This document shows, piece by piece, positions 2,077 to 8,939 of a stretch of DNA of 64,000 nucleotides. The DNA lies in assembly GCA_041658205.1 (NCBI GenBank), contig JBBAAO010000001.1, positions 710,800-774,799 of the forward strand, in the 5' to 3' direction. The notes under the pieces were generated by a model that made no database searches, was not told where the DNA came from, and saw only the letters and a list, made by a program, of their open reading frames with translations. Position numbers and translations under genes: made by a program. The stretch's first letter is position 1. Each line of letters starts with the position of its first letter. Origin of the DNA: Bacteroidota bacterium (lineage in GTDB: Bacteria; Bacteroidota; Ignavibacteria; UBA10030; UBA8401).

Positions 2077-4386
2077 CTATTTCTTATTAGGTTTAGCCCC
2101 CATCTCGAATACAATCGCCGCACCGTTCATTAGATCAGAATGAATGAAATAATTTTTCTTCCATTCCGTTCCGTTTAGCATAATCTTTTGCACATATACA
2201 TTCTTTGGCGATTGATTCTTTGTGTTGATGGACAGTGTTTTTCCGTTCTCCAGTTTGATCTTTGCTGACTTCACTAATGGACTACCGATCGAATATTGAT
2301 CCGAACCAGGAGCGACAGGGTAAAATCCTAATGCACTGAAAATATACCACGCAGACATTTGTCCGCAGTCGTCGTTTCCGCTCAGCCCGTCCGGCGTATT
2401 CGAATATTTAATGTTCAAGATCTTGCGGACTTTTTCTTGTGTCTTCCATGACTCACCGATCCAGTTATAGAGATACGGGACATGATGAGAAGGTTCATTT
2501 CCATGAACATAGTTTCCGATGATCCCTTCGCGAGTAATATCTTCGTTATGTGCAAAGAATTCGTCCGGCAGATGCATGGTAAAGAGCGAATCTAAGTAAT
2601 TAGAAAATTTTTTATTCCCACCAAGTAATTGAATCAATTTTGGCACGTTGTGGGGGACATGAAGGGAATAATTCCACGAATTGCCCTCAATAAATCCTTG
2701 TCCGTCGGTTTCTAACACACTAAAGTTTTTCCGGAACGATCCATCGCTCATTTTTGGACGCATAAAACCGATTGATGCATCGAAGACATTGCTGAAATTC
2801 TCTGATCGTTTGATGAACTCATTATACACTTTTTCATTTCCCAGCTTTTTTGCCATCTGTGCAATCGCCCAATCGTCGTAGGCATATTCCAGCGTTTTAG
2901 AGACGGATGAGGAGTTCTTATCGTCCGGTATATATCCCATTGCTATGTAATATTCCAAGCCGTCGTAGTATTTTTGCTGTGCTGTCTTTACACTTGCATC
3001 AAGTGCTTTTACTACATCAAAAGAAACATTTCCTTTTATGAATGCATCAGCAATGACCGACACGCTATGATAACCGATCATGCACCAATTTTCATTGGCA
3101 TAATGAGACCAAATCGGAAGCATGTTGTGAACGCTCTGTTCGTAATGAGCAAGCATTGAACGAATCATATCGCCGTTTCGTTTCGGCTGAAGGATGTTGA
3201 AGAGAGGATGAAGAGCACGGTACGTATCCCACAGTGAGAATGTTGTATAATTGGTAAATCCATCAGCAGTATGAATATTCTGATCGATTCCTTTGTATTG
3301 CCCATCCACATCCATATAGACTGTTGGACTGAGAAACGTATGGTAAAGAGAAGTGTAAAACGTCTCAGTATCTTTTTGGGAAAGGAGTTCGGCATTTACT
3401 TTTCCCAATTCTTCGTTCCACAAATCTTGACTCTCTTTCTTTACCCGCTCAAAATTCCAGTCCGGAATTTCAGCAGTGAGATTTTTTACTGCTCCTTCTG
3501 TGCTCACAGGGGATAACGAAAATTTTACTTTGATCTTTTCATTTACTTCTGTTGAAAAATTGAAATAAGCTCTGATATTCTTTCCCGCCATTTCGGGGAA
3601 ATTGGTTCTCACGTCGAATTTTTTCCAGAAACCGCGATAGATGGAAGTATCAAATTTCGCATGACCGTATGATGTAAACGGTTTGTTGAATGCCATGGCA
3701 AAATAGACAGTGCGTGTCCGTCCCCAGCCATTGGTCTGTCTAAATCCCGTCACAAGCGTGTCACTTTCAACACGGATGAATGTCCAGACATTCTTTTCAT
3801 CATAATTATAGATACCGTGCATCAAATCGAGAATGATATGTGATTCTTCCGATCGCGGGAATGTGTATTGATGAAAACCGACGCGTGTAGTTGCAGTCAA
3901 TTCCGCCGTGATTCCGCCGGAGGCGGATCCGCCTTTGGCGGAGTTATGGTCATCCAGTTTCACTTTGTAATACGCCGGCTCGGCAGTTTCGTTTGTGTGT
4001 GAATAGCGAGACCGATAACCGTTTTCAGGATGATTTGCTGTGCCGGGATTGAGTTGTAATTCACCGGTTGTCGGCATGATTAAAAAATCGCCAAGGTCGG
4101 AATGTCCTGTCCCGCTGAAATGTGTGTGACTGAATCCGACAATCGTCTTATCTTCATATTGATATCCTGCACAGTACTGATAGACTTCTGCCTGATATTT
4201 TCCATTCTTCTCGTAACTGAGTGTATCGGTATCCGGACTGAGCTGCACAGAGCCGAAAGGAACTGTTGCTCCGGGAAATGTATGTCCCATTCTCTGTGTG
4301 CCGGTGAGTGGTTTTACGTATTGGATGAAATTTGTTTGTGCGAAAATGATGATGGGAAAAACAAACAGAAGAGATACTTTTCTCAT
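2077..4386 (-). CDS. GH92 family alpha-mannosidase (alpha-1,2-mannosidase-like), secreted
   Basis: Start trimmed to the internal Met (MRKVSLLFVFPIIIFAQ signal peptide). The motif GFSHTHFSGTGHSDLGDFLIMP and the overall length (about 770 aa) are typical of GH92. Confidence 0.85.
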   Translation of the reverse strand: MRKVSLLFVFPIIIFAQTNFIQYVKPLTGTQRMGHTFPGATVPFGSVQLSPDTDTLSYEKNGKYQAEVYQYCAGYQYEDKTIVGFSHTHFSGTGHSDLGDFLIMPTTGELQLNPGTANHPENGYRSRYSHTNETAEPAYYKVKLDDHNSAKGGSASGGITAELTATTRVGFHQYTFPRSEESHIILDLMHGIYNYDEKNVWTFIRVESDTLVTGFRQTNGWGRTRTVYFAMAFNKPFTSYGHAKFDTSIYRGFWKKFDVRTNFPEMAGKNIRAYFNFSTEVNEKIKVKFSLSPVSTEGAVKNLTAEIPDWNFERVKKESQDLWNEELGKVNAELLSQKDTETFYTSLYHTFLSPTVYMDVDGQYKGIDQNIHTADGFTNYTTFSLWDTYRALHPLFNILQPKRNGDMIRSMLAHYEQSVHNMLPIWSHYANENWCMIGYHSVSVIADAFIKGNVSFDVVKALDASVKTAQQKYYDGLEYYIAMGYIPDDKNSSSVSKTLEYAYDDWAIAQMAKKLGNEKVYNEFIKRSENFSNVFDASIGFMRPKMSDGSFRKNFSVLETDGQGFIEGNSWNYSLHVPHNVPKLIQLLGGNKKFSNYLDSLFTMHLPDEFFAHNEDITREGIIGNYVHGNEPSHHVPYLYNWIGESWKTQEKVRKILNIKYSNTPDGLSGNDDCGQMSAWYIFSALGFYPVAPGSDQYSIGSPLVKSAKIKLENGKTLSINTKNQSPKNVYVQKIMLNGTEWKKNYFIHSDLMNGAAIVFEMGAKPNKK

Positions 4387-4619
4387 AACAGCGCCTTTAG
4401 AGAAGGAAGAAAACTTTTGAGAACATAGAGATAAAAAAGGAGAGAAGAAATAGCGCAAATAGAATACAGATATCACGGATTTATATAGATTGCTTTATCC
4501 GTGAAGATCCGCATGATCAGTGTCATCCGTGTTCTATTCAGTTCTATGCAGTTTGTCTTGCATAAAATCTTTCAATTCTCCATATTCCACGACAACAATT
4601 ATTCACATTTAGGAAATTC

Positions 4620-5519
4620 ATGAGATTAACGATTCTCCTTTCTACCATTTTGCTTTCCGCGATATTTGTTTCTGCTCAAAATGCCAAACCGAATGACGCT
4701 CTCAACGCGGAGGAACAATACAATATCTATTTTAAGAAAGCGGATGAGCAGCTGGGAAAATTTCAATTTGAAGAATCGATCAAAAGCGCACAAGAGGCGT
4801 TAAAATATAAACCAAATGACCACCTCGTCCGTGCGATGATTTGTCTGGATTATTATGAGATTGCCGAAAAATTAGATGTGAAGAAGTCTGATGAGAAAGA
4901 GTGGAAACTCGACATCTATAAAAAGATGGTGACTATTGCTGAAGAGGGTATGAAAGCAGCTCCTGAAAAAGGGGAGTGTTATTTTATGCGGGGACTTGCT
5001 AACGCTCGTATGTCCACAACAAAAGGGATTCTTTCGTCTCTCTTTTCTGCGAAACAGATTGAACAGGATTGGATCATTGCTGTCGGCAGGAAATCCGAAT
5101 ATGTTACTCCGATTGGCGAGAATCTTGAAGCATCGGCGAATATTGCTCTTGGTGTCTATTACCGTCTCTGTCCGTCATTCTTTTTATTACAATGGACATT
5201 TGGCATCAGCGGCGATCTAGAGAAAGCGGTGCAGTACTGCAAAAAAGCATACGAACTGGATCCAACCCGCATTGAGATTGTAAAAGAGTACGGCGTTGCT
5301 CTGATTACCCGCGGATTAGACAGCAACAACAAGAAGGATATTGAAGCGGGAAAAGAATTACTCGTAAAAGTTTCAACACTGCCGCTTCGTTTACGAACAG
5401 ATAAGATCGATATTGAACATAGTAAGATGTTATTAAGTGATATTTCTCTTTGTCCCGGTTACTCAAGGGATGAACAGCAGGAGATTTCAGAGGAAGCGTT
5501 TAGAAAGAACCATCACTAG
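4620..5519 (+). CDS. Hypothetical secreted/lipoprotein, helical (TPR-like) protein
   Basis: 299 aa ORF with a signal peptide (MRLTILLSTILLSAIFVSAQ). Alpha-helical, Lys/Glu-rich composition. No catalytic motif recognised. Confidence 0.55.
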   Translation: MRLTILLSTILLSAIFVSAQNAKPNDALNAEEQYNIYFKKADEQLGKFQFEESIKSAQEALKYKPNDHLVRAMICLDYYEIAEKLDVKKSDEKEWKLDIYKKMVTIAEEGMKAAPEKGECYFMRGLANARMSTTKGILSSLFSAKQIEQDWIIAVGRKSEYVTPIGENLEASANIALGVYYRLCPSFFLLQWTFGISGDLEKAVQYCKKAYELDPTRIEIVKEYGVALITRGLDSNNKKDIEAGKELLVKVSTLPLRLRTDKIDIEHSKMLLSDISLCPGYSRDEQQEISEEAFRKNHH

Positions 5520-5752
5520 TTTCCAAAAGCTCACCACAGAGTCACAGAGAAGTACGGTAAAGACATCTCGCCACCCTTTGTCTGAAACTATAAAAAACCC
5601 TCAAGTATATTAAATCTTCAATTCATAATAACTCATTGCGCTTTACCTAAGGCTTCTATCAATTACCTGTTCTTAAAATAGTGTGACTTAAAGTCCGTAG
5701 ACTTTAATATATTTTATATCAATTATGAAACAAAATTGAAAATTAAATATTA

Positions 5753-5965
5753 ATGTCTTATACAATTCATATATTATTTGGTAAAGAAGAAATATTGAGA
5801 CACAATTTAGGAATTAAACTAACTAAAAGTGAAAAGGTAACTAACCTCAAAACATTTTCCTTCCTTAATAAAAAAGAAGCTAATATTTTTTTAAGAGGAA
5901 TGGCTGAAGTTATCGGGTGGACTGAATATCTTGAATTAGAAAAATTCAACAAAGAGGATTTATGA
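5753..5965 (+). CDS. Small hypothetical protein (70 aa), translationally coupled to the downstream HNH gene
   Basis: Its stop codon TGA (5963-5965) overlaps the ATG of the next gene (5962-5964) as ATGA. Very low GC. No recognisable domain. Confidence 0.3.
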   Translation: MSYTIHILFGKEEILRHNLGIKLTKSEKVTNLKTFSFLNKKEANIFLRGMAEVIGWTEYLELEKFNKEDL

Positions 5966-6729
5966 AACAAAATATTTGGACTAGAGAGCAAACTATTGTT
6001 GCTTTTAATCTATATTGTAAAATCCCATTTAACAAAGTGTCATCAAATCATCCCGAGATACTTAAAATCTCAAAGATAATTGGAAGAAGCCCAAATTCTG
6101 TAAAAATGAAAATTGGGAATTTTGGAAGTTTTGATCCAGAACTTAAAAAAAGAGGAATTGTTGGTTTATCAAATAGTAGTAAACTTGATAAAGAAGTTTG
6201 GGATGAATTTAATATGAACTGGGAAAATCTAGTTTTTGAAAGTGAATCTATAATTGCAAAATATGCCAAGAAGACCTTGGGAGAATTAATTGGGTTAGAC
6301 TTGGAAAACCTGCCCAAGGGTAAAGAAAGGGAAGCAATTGTAAAAACGAGAATAAATCAATCCTTTTTTCGTAGTACAATTCTTTCTTCTTATAATCAAA
6401 AATGCTGTATCACAGGAATCTCTGTCCCTCAGTTATTGGTTGCAAGTCATATTGTTCCATGGTCTAAAAATGAAAACATCCGATTAGATCCAAGAAATGG
6501 TTTGTGCCTAAACTCTCTTCACGATAGAGCTTTTGATCACGGCTTCATAACTATCACAACAGATTATAAAATTATCGTCTCAAAAGAATTGACTGCAAAT
6601 TACAAAAAAGACAAATTGACTCAGGAGTATTTTTTAAGTTTTAATAATAAATCTATAAATATGCCTGATAGATTTTTGCCTAAAAAAGAATATTTAGATT
6701 ATCACTACGAAAATATTTTCAGGCAATAA
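5962..6729 (+). CDS. HNH endonuclease (HNH_2/PF13391-like C-terminal domain) with an uncharacterised N-terminal domain; candidate restriction/defence nuclease
   Basis: C-terminal motif CCITGISVPQLLVASHIVPWSKNENIRLDPRNGLCLNSLHDRAFDHGFITI matches the HNH_2 pattern (SHI.PW ... NGL.L...H.AFD.G). Sits in a low-GC islet. Confidence 0.7.
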   Translation: MKQNIWTREQTIVAFNLYCKIPFNKVSSNHPEILKISKIIGRSPNSVKMKIGNFGSFDPELKKRGIVGLSNSSKLDKEVWDEFNMNWENLVFESESIIAKYAKKTLGELIGLDLENLPKGKEREAIVKTRINQSFFRSTILSSYNQKCCITGISVPQLLVASHIVPWSKNENIRLDPRNGLCLNSLHDRAFDHGFITITTDYKIIVSKELTANYKKDKLTQEYFLSFNNKSINMPDRFLPKKEYLDYHYENIFRQ

Positions 6730-6732
6730 AAT

Positions 6733-7404
6733 ATGTATTTGATTAAACATTATATGTTTGATGCCAAAGGGATGAATACATTTCCAGAAAGATTATCGCG
6801 AAAAAAGTATAGAGAACTTAATCATAAATATAAAAACAATGATGTCTATGGGTTCATATTTAAGTTTAATGGAGATGGTCAGACGATTTTTTTTTACAAA
6901 ATCATTCCCCAAAAGCTAGAATTAAATTTAAAACTATTAGATACTCAATTACCTGAAATACTCGCGTATCTCGTTTCCTATACCAATAGAACTGGTAATT
7001 CAGCATTAAAGGATTTATTAGTTGAAATTACTAGATCAAACCCCTTGGGATTTGATCTAAGCAAGAATCAACCATTTTATAAACATAAGATTAAAAAATT
7101 ATTGACGGAAATTGTTTTTGGAATGAAATCTGATGTTGTGTGGAATGGTAATTACAATCCAACAAGAGGAGCAATAATTGTAAAAGAAAATGGAGAACTA
7201 GCTAACTATCACAATTACTATGGGAATGAATTTCAAAATTATTTAGTCAATATTGTAAAACTTCAGTTAGTCTCAAAAAGTGAAGATGAAAATAAATATG
7301 GCTTTGGAAAAAGAGAAAAACCAAAACCGTATAAATATGGTTGGATATATGAAGAAGATGGCGAGTTGTTTATAAAGTTAAATTTACAAATACGTTTTAC
7401 GTAA
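6733..7404 (+). CDS. Hypothetical protein (223 aa), partner of the HNH nuclease; possibly a restriction-enzyme-like or specificity component
   Basis: Begins 3 nt after the HNH gene stop. Very low GC and Lys/Asn/Tyr-rich. No motif I can assign. Confidence 0.45.
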   Translation: MYLIKHYMFDAKGMNTFPERLSRKKYRELNHKYKNNDVYGFIFKFNGDGQTIFFYKIIPQKLELNLKLLDTQLPEILAYLVSYTNRTGNSALKDLLVEITRSNPLGFDLSKNQPFYKHKIKKLLTEIVFGMKSDVVWNGNYNPTRGAIIVKENGELANYHNYYGNEFQNYLVNIVKLQLVSKSEDENKYGFGKREKPKPYKYGWIYEEDGELFIKLNLQIRFT

Positions 7405-7589
7405 TTTATATTTCTCTGTGTCTTTGTGCCTCTGTGGTTGCTTTTTCCTTCCGCACCCGCCAAAGAACATGTCCGGCAAGCAAGCAGTTTCCCTGCCTGA
7501 CAGCAGGCAGGTTCGTCCCGATATAAATCATCGGGACTCAGACTGACGGTGATAAAAGGTTTTTATTTATTTCTCTTTGTGTCTTTGTG
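7405..7589. repeat. Two direct copies of a TTCTCT(G/T)TGTGTCTTTGTG motif (7405-7428 and 7562-7589) flanking two stem-loops (7492-7511 and 7515-7537)
   Basis: Read directly from the sequence. Hairpin 1 is cctgcctg-acag-caggcagg; hairpin 2 is gtcccgat-ataaatc-atcgggac. A third, inverted partial copy of the motif lies at 5525-5552. Confidence 0.6.
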
Positions 7590-7787
7590 GTAAATGCTTT
7601 TCTTCCTTGCACTTCAACCTCACCTTTTCTATTTTCATACAACATTGTCGATTGAAACGTTAAAAACATTAATGTTCTTTCGAAAACATCCCGCAGGTTA
7701 TGCAGAAAAACATTATTTCTGCGAACATCAGTGATATTTGCGGGAACATCTTTTTTAAAACCTCATAAAACATATGAAGGAATCAGC

Positions 7788-8939
7788 ATGTCCGATACAG
7801 CAGTAAGTTTTGCCCCCACACAACAAATGACCATGGTCCAACAGATGGCGCGCGATTTTGCGGAAAAAGAAATTAAACCGCATGTTATGAAATATGACGA
7901 ATCGCAGGAATTCCCTAAAGAGATCTTTACGAAAATGGCCTCTCTCGGTTTTCTTGGCGCTTATTATCCCGAAGAACTCGAAGGGGCCGGACTCAATACG
8001 CTCGATTTTACCGTGATTATCGAAGAGATAGCAAAGATCGATCCCTCTGTAGCGCTGGGACTCTGTGCACACAACGGGCTTTGTGTTAGTCACATCTTTA
8101 ATCACGCAAGCGATACACTAAAGAAAAAATATCTTCCCGATCTTTTAAGCGGAAGGAAACTTGGCGGCTGGGGATTGACCGAAGCATTTTCCGGAAGCGA
8201 TGCGGGAGGGATGAGAACATTCGCTGTAAAAGAAGGGAACGAGTGGGTGATCAACGGCAGCAAGAATTTTATTACACATGGCATCTCCGGCCACACGTTT
8301 GTTATACTGGCGGTGACAGATAAAACAAAGAACAAATCGATCTCCGCATTTATTGTGGAGAAAGGAACGCCCGGCTTTTCATCTGGGAAGAAGGAAAATA
8401 AACTCGGTATGCGCTGCAGTGAAACTGCTTCGTTGATCTTCGACAACGTGCATATTCCAGAGGAGAACTTGATTGGAAATGTGGGAGAGGGATTCAAACA
8501 AGCATTGTCTGTCTTAGATGGCGGAAGAATTGGGATCGCTGCACTGTCAGTCGGTCTTGCACAAGGTGCATTGGAAGCGAGCATTAAATATTCAAAGGAG
8601 CGGGTGCAGTTCGGCAAACCGATTTCTGATAATCAAGGAATTCAATTTAAACTTGCCGATATGGCAATGGAAATTGAAGCGGCGCGATTATTAACGCGAA
8701 AAGCGGCATCCATGAAAATGGCCGGTTTAGATGTAAATCTTGAAGCAGCACAGGCGAAATATTTTGCAAGCGAAGTGGCTACGCGCGCATCGGGTGATGC
8801 AGTGCAGATACACGGCGGATATGGATTTACCAAAGATTTCCCGGTAGAAAAATTCTATCGCGACGTTAAACTGCTTACCATCGGCGAAGGAACAAGCGAG
8901 GTTCAGAAGATGGTGATTGCGAGAAACTTGCTTAAATAA
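7788..8939 (+). CDS. Acyl-CoA dehydrogenase (isovaleryl-CoA dehydrogenase-like)
   Basis: Start moved to the ATG at 7788 (MSDTAVSF...). Classic ACAD motifs present (GSKNFITHG, catalytic-Glu region EGTSEVQKMVIAR). Length 383 aa. Confidence 0.85.
   Translation: MSDTAVSFAPTQQMTMVQQMARDFAEKEIKPHVMKYDESQEFPKEIFTKMASLGFLGAYYPEELEGAGLNTLDFTVIIEEIAKIDPSVALGLCAHNGLCVSHIFNHASDTLKKKYLPDLLSGRKLGGWGLTEAFSGSDAGGMRTFAVKEGNEWVINGSKNFITHGISGHTFVILAVTDKTKNKSISAFIVEKGTPGFSSGKKENKLGMRCSETASLIFDNVHIPEENLIGNVGEGFKQALSVLDGGRIGIAALSVGLAQGALEASIKYSKERVQFGKPISDNQGIQFKLADMAMEIEAARLLTRKAASMKMAGLDVNLEAAQAKYFASEVATRASGDAVQIHGGYGFTKDFPVEKFYRDVKLLTIGEGTSEVQKMVIARNLLK

Follow-up and report, generated by a model that had tools for sequence, protein, structure and literature searches.

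The window, a 64-kb stretch of DNA from an Ignavibacteriota lineage, contains a low-GC islet lodged in the slot between a TPR gene and an acyl-CoA dehydrogenase gene, and copies of one short motif lie at its edges: an inverted copy on the left and two direct copies on the right. An initial annotation, made from the letters, took this layout for the signature of a transposon-like or integrative element, or of an att-site duplication. Are the repeats the ends of the cassette that they enclose, or do they belong to the chromosome that received it? We re-examined the islet-edge features (5525-7589), and compared them with the same slot in relatives and with similar repeats elsewhere.

The repeats and the islet that they bracket

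The sequences and coordinates first given for the three motif copies and the two stem-loops are all correct on re-reading (Table 1). The motif consists of tandem 8-mers CTYTGTG-N that terminate in GGT, and Tandem Repeats Finder reports the 8-nt period, with 2.9 copies at 7414-7436 and 2.0 copies at 7574-7589. The left arm, L, starts 6 nt past the TAG stop of the TPR gene (5517-5519); within the first right arm, R1, positions 7411-7446 read tttctctgtgtctttgtgcctctgtggttgcttttt; the third copy of the motif, at 7562-7589, is R2.

Table 1. Features of the islet and of its two edges, in window positions
Feature	Coordinates	Strand	Description
Left arm L	5525..5552	(-)	plus-strand letters aaaagctcaccacagagtcacagagaag; reverse complement cttctctgtgactctgtggtgagctttt; purine strand on +: AAAAGC-TCA-CCACAGAG-T-CACAGAG-AAG
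Normal-GC stretch inside L	5553..5584		~32 nt; GC 0.40-0.47 to ~5585, then falls to 0.25
Foreign low-GC cargo	5585..7408	(+)	orf70, HNH_2 endonuclease, truncated HpaII endonuclease
orf70	5753-5965	(+)	matches the N-terminal part of a 138-aa protein found in this slot in L014
HNH_2 endonuclease	5962-6729	(+)	Pfam HNH_2 1.9e-13; PADLOC HNH 7e-96
Truncated HpaII restriction endonuclease	6733-7404	(+)	RE_HpaII profile positions 172-359 of 359
Right arm R1 and tail	7409..7460	(+)	three units CTCTGTG-T-CTTTGTG-C-CTCTGTGGT, then TGCTTTTTCCTTCCGCAC
Spacer with twin hairpins	7461..7564	(.)	normal GC, between R1 and R2
Stem-loops	7492-7511 and 7515-7537		perfect 8-bp stems
Right arm R2	7565..7618	(+)	CTTTGTG-T-CTTTGTGGT-AAATGCTTTT and start of the acyl-CoA dehydrogenase promoter-like block
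Conserved block	7607..7643	(+)	TTGCACTTCAACC..CTTTTCTATTTTCATACAAC; first core sequence right of the slot

In Smith-Waterman alignments judged against 1000 dinucleotide shuffles, the reverse complement of L scores 30 with the right-hand region, a score matched by no shuffle, and again 30 with R1 alone, over a 26-column local alignment, matched by one; R1 and R2 score 43, matched by none. The arms thus beat 999 to 1000 of the 1000 controls in the comparison that the initial annotation had called for, and the imperfect inverted repeat is real, significant, and brackets exactly the compositionally foreign cassette. The direct repeat on the right is also real, but its extent had been understated: it covers about 55 nt (7405-7460 versus 7565-7618) and takes in GCTTTT..CCTT..GCAC.

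The motif is also rare. With up to three mismatches, TTCTCTGTGTCTTTGTG occurs three times in 64 kb, at L, R1 and R2; shuffling predicts 0.25 matches per 64 kb, and none of 100 shuffles reaches three. An HMM of the arm matches the same three places (L at 5528-5551, E 1e-3; R1 at 7412-7439, E 4e-3; R2 at 7572-7598, E 1e-2), and neither the mismatch scan nor the HMM finds a further arm in the window. A degenerate (-) arm at 7449-7465, read from the sequence as a pairing partner for R2, is too weak to claim. The fear that the motif is a common genome-wide word is not borne out in the lineage sequence available, with three copies in 64 kb, although the motif does belong to a widespread class of repeats. 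In 307 kb of the window and its relatives, the strict motif is confined to the slot; the broad arm class has 14 matches in 448 kb versus 1.4 expected, most of them at the slot or after the TPR gene.

The atypical composition of the cassette is confirmed: GC is 0.10-0.33 from about position 5585 to 7410, versus 0.40-0.55 in the flanks on either side. The short stretch of normal GC next to L is possibly a remnant of an original hairpin loop. The HpaII endonuclease lacks roughly 170 N-terminal residues, no methyltransferase is present in the cargo (5585..7408), and the closest outside homologues of the HNH_2 protein are 63-69% identical. Against the model for phosphorothioate-dependent restriction, this protein has a weak score that stays under the cut-off and, in contrast to L161 and L036, no methylase accompanies it in the islet. 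A Pfam search of the islet ORFs and the four flanking genes yields only HNH_2 and the truncated RE_HpaII, with no transposase or integrase; PADLOC, run on the islet, likewise reports these two proteins only. The cassette is best read as horizontally acquired, partly decayed, and of restriction type.

On the right, the two stems between R1 and R2 recur in minimum free energy and centroid folds of either strand, and the region 7400-7640 folds better than shuffles (z -2.5 and -2.8 on the two strands). The initial annotation had suggested a discrete small RNA or a terminator. Nothing supports either: the hairpins have no Rfam match, the spacer cannot be aligned to L004 or L016 and is not conserved in these related loci, and a consensus scan places no terminator-like site on the twin hairpins. 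Rfam at its gathering score has no match in the window or in 12 phage loci rich in related elements and, over 5400-7850 with E up to 5, its sole match is a chance miRNA. More generally, arms and twin hairpins were rejected as terminators or promoters: consensus scans do not rise above shuffles, and no site falls on them. Hairpin 2 was also considered as a CGTC-tagged REP, but misfits the description in section 6 of PMC3733652, because its stem uses GTC and does not begin with AT.

Another relative, L292, holds an analogous array of arm-plus-hairpin units (122 nt, 3.9 copies). The best reading of R1 and R2 is a local duplication of about 55 nt within such an array, as in relatives and phages, with R2 as the ancestral right-hand arm. 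A piece of the adjoining promoter region is contained in the R1 copy, and the repeat is therefore a segmental duplication of chromosomal sequence rather than the end of an element. The promoter in question is the conserved block of Table 1, kept in all nine alleles compared, four of them free of both cargo and arms (L037, L038, L040, L294). It is probably a promoter of the predicted -33/-7 type, serving the acyl-CoA dehydrogenase operon; we take it to resemble Bacteroidota promoters.

L has no local partner: the fold energy of the region 5510-5610 is -13 kcal/mol (z -1.4). For L joined to R1 it is -34.7 kcal/mol, a value that none of 500 controls attains, and L, the 32-nt stretch and R1 together fold at -42.7 kcal/mol. 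The fold of L with R1 includes a closure of AAAAGC, on the left, with GCTTTT, on the right, that is also present in members of the family to which the arms belong. These flanks are complementary and extend the stem; outside the arms, no target-site duplication is present.

A family of octamer-armed hairpins

The pattern CTYTGTGNCTYTGTGGT matched at least 120 stretches of uncultivated phages in IMG/VR; other carriers are Nostocales plasmids, an Endozoicomonas-like prophage and a Bacteroides record, the cultured Bacteroides finegoldii NZ_OY725952.1, at about 5400-5590. Among the matches listed, 173 distinct arms have in common a third unit, a T-rich 5' side, and an end GGT[G/T]AA followed by T-rich sequence, and the arm HMM recognizes 249 arms in 119 loci. 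An arm is made of two to three tandem units CTYNGYG-N of 8-9 nt, with GGT at the end. The canonical element is a hairpin: an arm on the purine strand (ACC-CACAGAG...), a short loop, then the complement (...CTCTGTG-GGT).

This polarity is marked. Adjacent arms in the order (-)(+) are separated by at most 250 nt in 60 of 62 pairs, with a median of 47.5, versus only 3 of 33 pairs in the order (+)(-). Arms are 81% complementary within an element versus 64% between elements, and their variants covary, CACAAAG with CTTTGTG and CGCCAAG with CTTGGCG. Element folds span -27 to -94 kcal/mol. For about a third of the arms (85 of about 240), no partner is detected; in three phage elements, loops of 159-307 nt hold small ORFs. 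In the window, L(-)...R1(+) has the canonical polarity, but the arms are 1.86 kb apart, which far exceeds the loop range of 7-307 nt in the family and counts against reading them as a split hairpin.

Uncultivated phages hold many members of the class, and bacteria of at least four phyla also carry it, with nearly identical arm sequence. It was not found in Rfam; a search of 8 million full-text papers by arm sequence returned only unrelated eukaryotic primers, and blastn of the consensus arm against 50,697 deposited phage genomes returned nothing, an outcome for which the low-complexity filter was shown not to be responsible. The class is apparently undescribed so far.

Several known repeats come close. 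REPINs, or REP doublets (Bertels & Rainey 2011, PMC3116915), and BIME-type clusters are likewise short extragenic repeats: inverted doublets with short spacers, which fold into long hairpins, are by far the commonest arrangement, beside singlets, clusters and tandem arrays, whole doublets are dispersed within a genome, and placement is intergenic irrespective of gene orientation. The over-represented short-spacer inverted doublets of our family, which form hairpins, agree with this. However, REPs are individually imperfect palindromes that carry an unpaired GTAG or CGTC tag (PMC3733652), whereas an octamer-family arm is built from 8-9-nt units in direct tandem order, is not palindromic by itself, carries neither tag and ends in GGT[G/T]AA. 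A cognate RAYT (Y1 transposase) is part of the definition of REPs and REPINs, and the likeness here is drawn from the repeats alone. REPIN families are typically lineage-specific, while the octamer arm is found in several phyla and many phages; many dispersed copies per genome are seen in the phage contigs, and the genome of the window has three within 64 kb.

REP dimers also turn up in the middle of longer palindromes, into which they have inserted (Di Nocera et al. 2013, PMC3733652, section 7). Those GTAG- or CGTC-tagged REPs in "target" palindromes resemble the window in that a long palindrome has its centre occupied by other DNA; they differ in that a 1.8-kb gene cassette takes the place of the REP dimer here, and in that the host palindrome is made of tandem units. 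In loci L139 and L036, REP hairpins of CGTC type do lie inside or beside octamer-armed hairpins, with the CGTC-1-like form CGTC-ATTCCCGC-GAAA-GCGGGAAT-CCA.

The PeSL cassettes of T4-type phages (PMC2839356, PMC4122927), proposed to mediate modular shuffling, likewise pair a repeated intergenic stem-loop with the variable, often orphan genes that it flanks, as is found in our family. PeSLs are distinguished by a promoter component and circular recombination products, and the octamer hairpins are known here from their sequence; the octamer hairpin is unrelated in sequence, and is present in bacterial chromosomes and many unrelated phages. Finally, the TAACTGA heptamers of Beggiatoaceae, Cyanobacteria and Bacteroidetes (PMC4679880) and the heptamer repeats of Nostoc (bioRxiv 10.1101/2022.06.06.494920) are also tandem units of 7-9 nt in intergenic DNA, with a similarly patchy spread across phyla (Cyanobacteria, Bacteroidota, Chromatiaceae) and no known transfer mechanism, but they form direct arrays near start codons rather than paired inverted arms with stems of 25-30 bp.

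The same slot in related genomes

If the arms were the ends of the cassette, they should travel with it. The slot of the window carries HNH_2 and the truncated HpaII; in relatives, it is occupied by a SLFN-type helicase (L004, L019), HNH (L016), HNH with the 138-aa protein (L014), an M1 peptidase with a SLFN helicase (L015, L292), or MazE, Dcm, HATPase_c_3 and HNH_2 (L036). The orf70 module is common to the window and L014, but in opposite orientation.

Arms are found at orthologous positions beside these unrelated cargoes. An orthologue of L by position lies in L015 at 497-511, and L036 has an arm-like copy. Orthologues of R2 are present in L004 (12945-12969, CTCCGTG-TC-CTCTGTG-CC-CTCCGTGGTGA), L016 and L292 (5722-5743); R2 is degenerate in L035 and L036, and the right arm is also kept in L014. 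The four cargo-free alleles, which have other upstream genes, lack arms. Because arms are orthologous in alleles with different cargo, the comparison of these sequences indicates that they predate the cargo. L015, L004 and L016 retain single arms, one surviving the loss of the other. Conversely, no arms surround the HNH_2 cassettes of nine homologous loci elsewhere (L161-L169), and a motif that travels with the HNH_2 cassette was rejected.

Two more distant relatives, L007 (-49 kcal/mol, z -6.3) and L017, have intact hairpins of the same class 35-40 nt past the TPR stop. They use a different heptamer and stand next to AcrB downstream; from their position only, we infer that they are orthologous to the hairpin of the window. 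In L004 and L016, the left arm is absent and the cargo follows directly on the stop codon of the TPR gene, so insertion was not always inside the loop. No empty-site allele, consisting of the TPR gene, an intact hairpin and acyl-CoA dehydrogenase, was found, and the split itself is thus not directly observed; a TPR-based metagenome scan gave 16 loci, with no more TPR/acyl-CoA dehydrogenase alleles and no motif.

Chromosomal defence hot spots are slots between core genes in which related genomes hold different defence or restriction genes. The TPR/acyl-CoA dehydrogenase slot resembles them, also in its atypical composition and in the absence of an integrase; it differs in that, in this clade, it is delimited by specific hairpin-repeat arms.

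How the arms came to flank the cargo

The arms of the window belong to the octamer family, have its canonical polarity, are orthologous across differing cargo and are absent around the same cargo elsewhere. The explanation that we favour, and regard as fairly probable, is that the slot, variable in its defence genes, is marked by a resident REP/REPIN-like hairpin that was split or invaded by the cargo, which is not a transposon. In the ancestral state, one such hairpin would have stood just 3' of the TPR gene in this Ignavibacteriota lineage, and the space between and beside its arms would have become the slot. L and R1 would be two halves of one hairpin, now held 1.86 kb apart by the restriction-type cassette, and resident chromosomal repeats rather than cassette ends. 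The cargo was presumably inserted in the loop or close to it. It may have got there when a long palindrome broke and captured DNA, by insertion targeted to a palindrome centre, as with REPs and some IS elements, or by replacement through recombination in the flanking core genes, which would suffice for L004 and L016. Since about a third of the arms in the family stand without a partner, L and R1/R2 may also be independent single arms.

Would the arms have had an active part? Because the same arms of about 30 nt lie between genes in many phages and in this slot, they might act as portable homology, by analogy with PeSLs: recombination between arms on different molecules would move or swap the enclosed genes, the cassette included. 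This possibility, which overlaps the favoured explanation and differs from it only in the active role of the arms, strikes us as doubtful. The phages speak for it: elements are squeezed between genes in real tailed phages, whatever the gene orientation, and whole elements are dispersed within phage genomes (four in L083, two in L053, four to five in L046). The elements of L048 and L053 are about 90% alike over 91-94 nt, with dissimilar flanks; each of the five arms in the related phages L085, L088 and L063 coincides with a break or indel that separates homologous blocks; and single genes are flanked by direct arms in L071 and by inverted arms in L089, L064 and L072. The inverted orf70 module of L014 and the documented precedent of PeSL motifs point the same way. 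However, phage intergenic regions are mosaic boundaries anyway, and five arms are too few for a test of enrichment; no clean presence/absence polymorphism was seen in near-identical phage contigs among the loci examined. Had complete hairpins undergone a double crossover, a whole hairpin should stand on each side of the cargo, and the window has only half-elements. No donor with this cargo between arms was found, and the HNH_2 cassettes elsewhere are free of them.

It is unlikely that the flanking is a coincidence, each arm being an independent signal at the RNA or DNA level and the inverted layout having no mechanistic meaning. L would then be what remains of a 3' stabiliser or terminator for the TPR gene, with R1 as its counterpart for the operon of the cassette, and R2 would serve the acyl-CoA dehydrogenase promoter as an upstream element. 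Indeed, single arms are frequent in the family, L and R1 are each at most 10 nt from a stop codon, and R2 lies directly 5' of the promoter-like block found in all alleles; the four copies of L083 have the same orientation, with a sense-strand fold more stable by 2-12 kcal/mol, and REPs are known to act as RNA elements downstream of genes (PMC3733652). Yet the 64 kb hold only three arms, all of them edging the single low-GC islet, in canonical polarity, and L pairs with R1 down to the AAAAGC/GCTTTT closure. R2 is not needed for the promoter, because the cargo-free alleles keep the block without any arm. Over 29 elements, the asymmetry between sense and antisense folds is not significant (p = 0.13); the elements have stems of about 25 bp and no consistent U-tract (mean 4.1 T in the 12 nt downstream), and no terminator-like site is found at the arms. 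As a Shine-Dalgarno site, the arm end GGTGA was rejected, for it keeps no preferred distance to the next start codon.

Very unlikely, in our judgement, is the reading of the initial annotation, with the arms as terminal inverted repeats of a non-autonomous transposon that carries cargo (a MITE-like element grown around genes) or as duplications from att-type integration: L and R1 do form inverted repeats at both ends that frame the low-GC cargo precisely, family elements are dispersed within genomes and found across phyla, which suggests mobility, and a few of them enclose ORFs, but neither the islet nor its neighbours encode a transposase or integrase, the 64-kb window lacks tRNA and tmRNA genes, a target-site duplication is absent, the arms stay behind with other cargo while related cargo does without them, R1 includes a piece of promoter region, and R1 and R2, the direct repeats, are both found on the right of the cargo, so that nothing supports an att site. 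Integron attC sites were also considered and rejected: the islet ORFs and four flanking genes hold no integrase domain, the core motifs RYYYAAC...GTTRRRY are absent, and the arm ends GTGGTTGCT, GTGGTGAGC and GTGGTAAAT do not fit the attC core GTTRRRY.

A much broader proposal, to which we give little credence, is that octamer-armed hairpins are an undescribed class common to uncultivated phages, Ignavibacteriota, Bacteroidota, Cyanobacteria and Gammaproteobacteria, whose centres or arms would be generic points of entry and exchange for cassettes, those with defence genes included: integrase-free analogues of attC sites and PeSLs, linking the gene pools of phages and hosts.

If the favoured explanation is correct, the window displays a small defence islet without integrase whose limits are the two halves of a palindromic repeat resident in the chromosome, and this boundary offers a structural cause of a hot spot that is both concrete and testable: the fragility of a long palindrome, or insertion targeted to its centre. 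It would also reveal a class of repeats that Rfam, full texts searched by sequence, and 50,697 deposited phage genomes did not show. That the arm is so well conserved among genomes with 31-70% GC speaks for a specific trans-acting partner or a mobility mechanism, and the Bacteroides finegoldii record, as a cultured carrier, makes the question experimentally approachable.

Arms and cargo of the islet

The initial annotation had noticed related motifs at both edges of an islet, and its sequences and coordinates are all correct on re-reading. Allowing at most three mismatches, the 17-mer TTCTCTGTGTCTTTGTG has three copies in the 64-kb window; 0.25 copies are expected from shuffles, and three were reached in 0/100. 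Local alignments of the arms, tested against 1000 dinucleotide-preserving shuffles, uphold the similarity: the reverse-complemented left arm scores 30 against the right region (reached by 0/1000 shuffles) and 30 against the first right arm, R1, alone (1/1000), and R1 scores 43 against the second right arm, R2 (0/1000). At about 55 nt, the repeat shared by R1 and R2 exceeds the extent first reported, and it continues into GCTTTT..CCTT..GCAC. The motif consists of 2-3 tandem units, CTYTGTG-N, with a period of 8 nt and a GGT end, and in 307 kb (window and relatives) its strict form is confined to the slot, the interval between a TPR-repeat gene and an acyl-CoA dehydrogenase gene.

Coordinates of the features, in the window unless a locus is named
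Feature	Position	Strand	Remark
TPR-repeat gene	4620-5519	+	left flank of islet
Left arm	5525-5552	-
TTCTCTGTGTCTTTGTG copy 1	5535-5551	-	at most 3 mismatches
orf70	5753-5965		no family match
HNH_2 endonuclease, 255 aa	5962-6729		Pfam 1.9e-13; PADLOC HNH 7e-96
HpaII restriction endonuclease, truncated	6733-7404		matches Pfam profile positions 172-359 of 359
R1	7409-7460	+
TTCTCTGTGTCTTTGTG copy 2	7412-7428	+	at most 3 mismatches
Twin hairpins	7492-7511, 7515-7537
R2	7565-7618	+
TTCTCTGTGTCTTTGTG copy 3	7573-7589	+	at most 3 mismatches
Acyl-CoA dehydrogenase	7788-8939	+	right flank of islet; carboxyltransferase gene next
CGTC-type hairpins	L139 ~130-160; L036 2507-2535, ~6920-6950; L292 5921-5947; L014 2040-2068; L022 1925-1965

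The islet, in a window that comes from an Ignavibacteriota MAG, is indeed atypical in composition: GC stands at 0.40-0.47 as far as about 5585, drops to 0.10-0.33 until about 7410, and is 0.38-0.55 beyond. Its cargo consists of three ORFs. Given the limited part of the profile that it matches, the HpaII endonuclease is an N-terminally truncated remnant, and the HNH_2 gene beside it is an orphan. The islet contains no methyltransferase, transposase or integrase, and the 64-kb window no tRNA. The HNH_2 protein may be a modification-dependent enzyme, because it scores weakly (67 bits, cut-off 180) against a model of phosphorothioate-dependent restriction. In L161 and L162 the HNH_2 module comprises a C5 methylase, HATPase_c_3, Vsr, HNH_2 and an ORF of about 87 aa, and L036 is similar; in L168, HNH_2 is alone, with a 63-aa ORF upstream. 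The palindrome AAAGTC-cgta-GACTTT, at 5690-5705, lies upstream of orf70, and has a counterpart, AAAGTCC-ac-GGACTTT (L014 1937-1952), upstream of a homologous 138-aa gene whose orientation relative to the TPR gene is opposite; the small gene may have its operator in this palindrome.

R1 copies R2 along with 20 nt of the promoter-proximal sequence that comes next, and is thus a segmental duplication of chromosomal DNA rather than an element end; the proposal that the arms are the ends of a transposon-like element is not supported. In the normal-GC spacer between R1 and R2 lie the twin stem-loops, perfect 8-bp hairpins present in the MFE folds of both strands. Nothing supports the suggestion that they form a discrete small RNA: they match nothing in Rfam, lack a U-tract, and are not conserved in the relatives L004 or L016. 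In L292 (5211-5691), a 122-nt unit is repeated 3.9 times with 92% matches just upstream of the R2 orthologue and dehydrogenase promoter, each unit carrying a 13-bp-stem hairpin GATGGACCACACC..GGTGTAGTCCATC and the arm-like CCGTGTTCTCTGTGTG; in phage L050, whole elements, that is, pairs of complementary arms forming a hairpin, stand in a tandem array. The R1-hairpins-R2 segment represents such an array with two units, and is reminiscent of BIME-type mosaics.

The slot in relatives

Alleles of the slot were gathered by searching with the flanking proteins. The interval between the TPR and dehydrogenase genes is a variable defence-gene slot, in which arms stay while cargo changes.

Cargo and arms in the collected alleles
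Loci	Cargo	Arms
L004, L019	SLFN-group-3 (DUF2075-type) helicase, start 8 nt past TPR stop	right arm in L004; L019 contig stops short of it
L016	246-aa HNH protein, other strand	degenerate right arm
L014	248-aa HNH protein; 138-aa protein, N-terminus matching orf70	right-type arm past cargo
L015, L292	M1 peptidase, SLFN helicase	left arm in L015; right arm in L292
L036	MazE, C5 methylase, HATPase_c_3, HNH_2, 86-aa ORF	left arm-like copy; degenerate right arm
L035	HNH_2, small ORFs, hydrolase	degenerate right arm
L037, L038, L040, L294	none; upstream genes unrelated	none

The left arm has a positional orthologue in L015, CACAAAGTCACAAAG, about 15 nt past the stop; the arm-like copy of L036 sits at the left edge of a cargo that adjoins GH92, the TPR gene being absent there. 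R2 has orthologues in L004 (CTCCGTG-TC-CTCTGTG-CC-CTCCGTGGTGA), L292 (CCTATGTGTCTATGTGGT), L016 (a shorter copy), and, as degenerate versions, in L035 and L036. R2 and all these orthologues adjoin a conserved promoter-like block, TTGCACTTC..CTTTTCTATTTTC, which is present without an arm in the cargo-free alleles. In L014, the right-type arm CTTCGCGTCTTCGTGTCTTTGCGGTAAAA follows the cargo though the downstream gene differs. No empty-site allele was found among those collected. Around the HNH_2 cassettes of nine other loci there are no arms; the arms are therefore part of the slot rather than of the cargo.

Two non-coding stretches near the slot deserve description. The dehydrogenase leader occupies 150-200 nt downstream of the promoter-like block (window, L004, L016, L035-L040) and has no Rfam match; it ends in CCTCATCAAACATATGAAGGAA, nearly invariant in nine alleles, immediately 5' of the start codon (window 7757-7790), and in the window contains a 16-nt direct repeat (7714-7729 and 7735-7750). 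In L015, a stretch of about 530 nt (480-1013) follows the left arm and precedes the gene of an M1 peptidase that has a T9SS sorting domain; it is dense with perfect hairpins of 8-14 bp, of which there are seven or more different ones.

A hairpin repeat class in phages

At least 120 stretches of IMG/VR match in a scan with CTYTGTGNCTYTGTGGT, and their sequences indicate that these matches are not chance. When aligned by their GGT ends, the 173 distinct arms among the matches listed have in common a third unit, a T-rich 5' side, and GGT[G/T]AA with T-rich sequence after it. The HMM derived from this set detects, again among matches listed, 249 arms at 119 loci in 1.5 Mb, and recognizes the window copies with E-values of 1e-3 (left arm), 4e-3 (R1) and 1e-2 (R2). 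Neighbouring arms in (-)(+) order are separated by at most 250 nt in 60 of 62 listed pairs (median 47.5 nt, bulk 7-124), those in (+)(-) order in only 3 of 33: the unit is therefore a hairpin of fixed polarity, ACC-(CACAGAG-N)x3 ... loop ... (CTCTGTG-N)x3-GGT. The fold energies of the elements range from -27 to -94 kcal/mol; arms match at 81% within an element versus 64% between elements, and variants covary, CACAAAG pairing with CTTTGTG (L072, L089, L093). About 85 of about 240 arms have no recognisable partner. With CGCCAAG or CGCGAAG as units, the architecture recurs in a second scan. In phage L219 (~6330-6430), hairpins made of different heptamer variants, CACAAAG/CTTAGTG and CTTCGCG/CTTGGCG, stand side by side in one intergenic region.

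The contigs encode terminase, portal, capsid and tape measure and are genuine tailed phages, their GC ranging over 31-70%; the elements sit a few nucleotides from flanking genes in any orientation (+|+ 23, -|- 11, -|+ 9, +|- 4). Whole elements, loop included, are dispersed within one phage (four in L083, two in L053, also L046), and L048 and L053 have matching elements in dissimilar flanks. The four L083 copies (2795-6919), of one subtype and uniform orientation between co-directional genes, have common internal mismatches, CGCAGAG opposite CTCTGGG or CTCTGTG, and the sense-strand RNA therefore folds 2-12 kcal/mol more stably than the antisense; this computed difference hints at an RNA-level function in that phage. 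Across elements, the sense/antisense bias is not significant, and there is neither a U-tract nor a fixed spacing to start codons.

Beyond IMG/VR, where one locus belongs to a prophage in a gammaproteobacterium resembling Endozoicomonas, 14 PLSDB records match, including Nostocales plasmids with single arms, a Thiodictyon plasmid, and a Bacteroides finegoldii record with a complete hairpin between aminotransferase and ferredoxin genes. Such a patchy distribution across Cyanobacteria, Bacteroidota and Chromatiaceae is like the one reported for TAACTGA heptamer repeats (PMC4679880). No Rfam family matches the repeat, the literature searched by arm sequence gave no match, and neither did blastn of the consensus arm against 50,697 deposited phage genomes, a local control ruling out low-complexity masking as the cause; the class is undescribed in the sense of being absent from these three.

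A probable split hairpin and possible routes for the cargo

The left arm followed by R1 has the canonical polarity, with a loop of 1.86 kb versus the usual 7-307 nt. The left arm lacks a pairing partner nearby (fold of 5510-5610: -13 kcal/mol, z -1.4); joined to R1, it forms a family-like hairpin, AAAAGC/GCTTTT closure included, of -34.7 kcal/mol, reached by 0/500 controls, and of -42.7 kcal/mol with 32 nt of adjoining normal-GC sequence between them. Two more distant relatives, L007 (-49 kcal/mol, z -6.3) and L017, have intact hairpins of the same class 35-40 nt past the TPR stop, between convergent TPR and AcrB genes, putative orthologues by position only. In our reading, therefore, the left arm and R1 (or R2) are the two halves of one resident hairpin, on either side of the cargo.

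A resident, conserved inverted arm pair delimits a slot whose content turns over; how the cargo arrived is inferred, with three compatible routes. A long palindrome might break, as in the SbcCD-type processing of model bacteria, and its repair capture foreign DNA. Insertion might instead be targeted to palindrome centres, as with IS elements that target REP loops; we count in its favour CGTC-1-like REP hairpins, which in L139 and L036 take up the centre or a side of an element, and three phage elements whose loops, 159-307 nt long, contain small ORFs. Insertion of this kind is on record for REP dimers within longer palindromes (PMC3733652, section 7). Finally, the cargo might come by allelic replacement through the flanking core genes, the arms being bystanders; this route, or deletion, must also operate, since L004 and L016 have no left arm and their cargo lies directly at the TPR stop.

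Hairpins of the form CGTC-ATTCCCGC-GAAA-GCGGGAAT-CCA occur inside or beside octamer-armed hairpins and in dehydrogenase leaders. They fit the account of CGTC-1 REPs in PMC3733652 (an 8-bp stem beginning AT, a 4-nt loop, a CCA tail). Reports of this family come mainly from alpha-Proteobacteria.

It is also possible that the arms play an active role as portable homology between phages and hosts, by analogy with PeSL (PMC2839356, PMC4122927): in L085, L088 and L063, 5/5 arms lie at breaks between homologous blocks, too small a sample for a test. Read by eye rather than tallied, the purine-strand unit CRCNRAG is constant at C1, C3, A6 and G7 in all variants seen, and the genomes concerned differ widely in GC. 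This constancy and the fixed ACC...GGT polarity suggest that the element either has a partner that recognises its sequence or propagates in a specific way.
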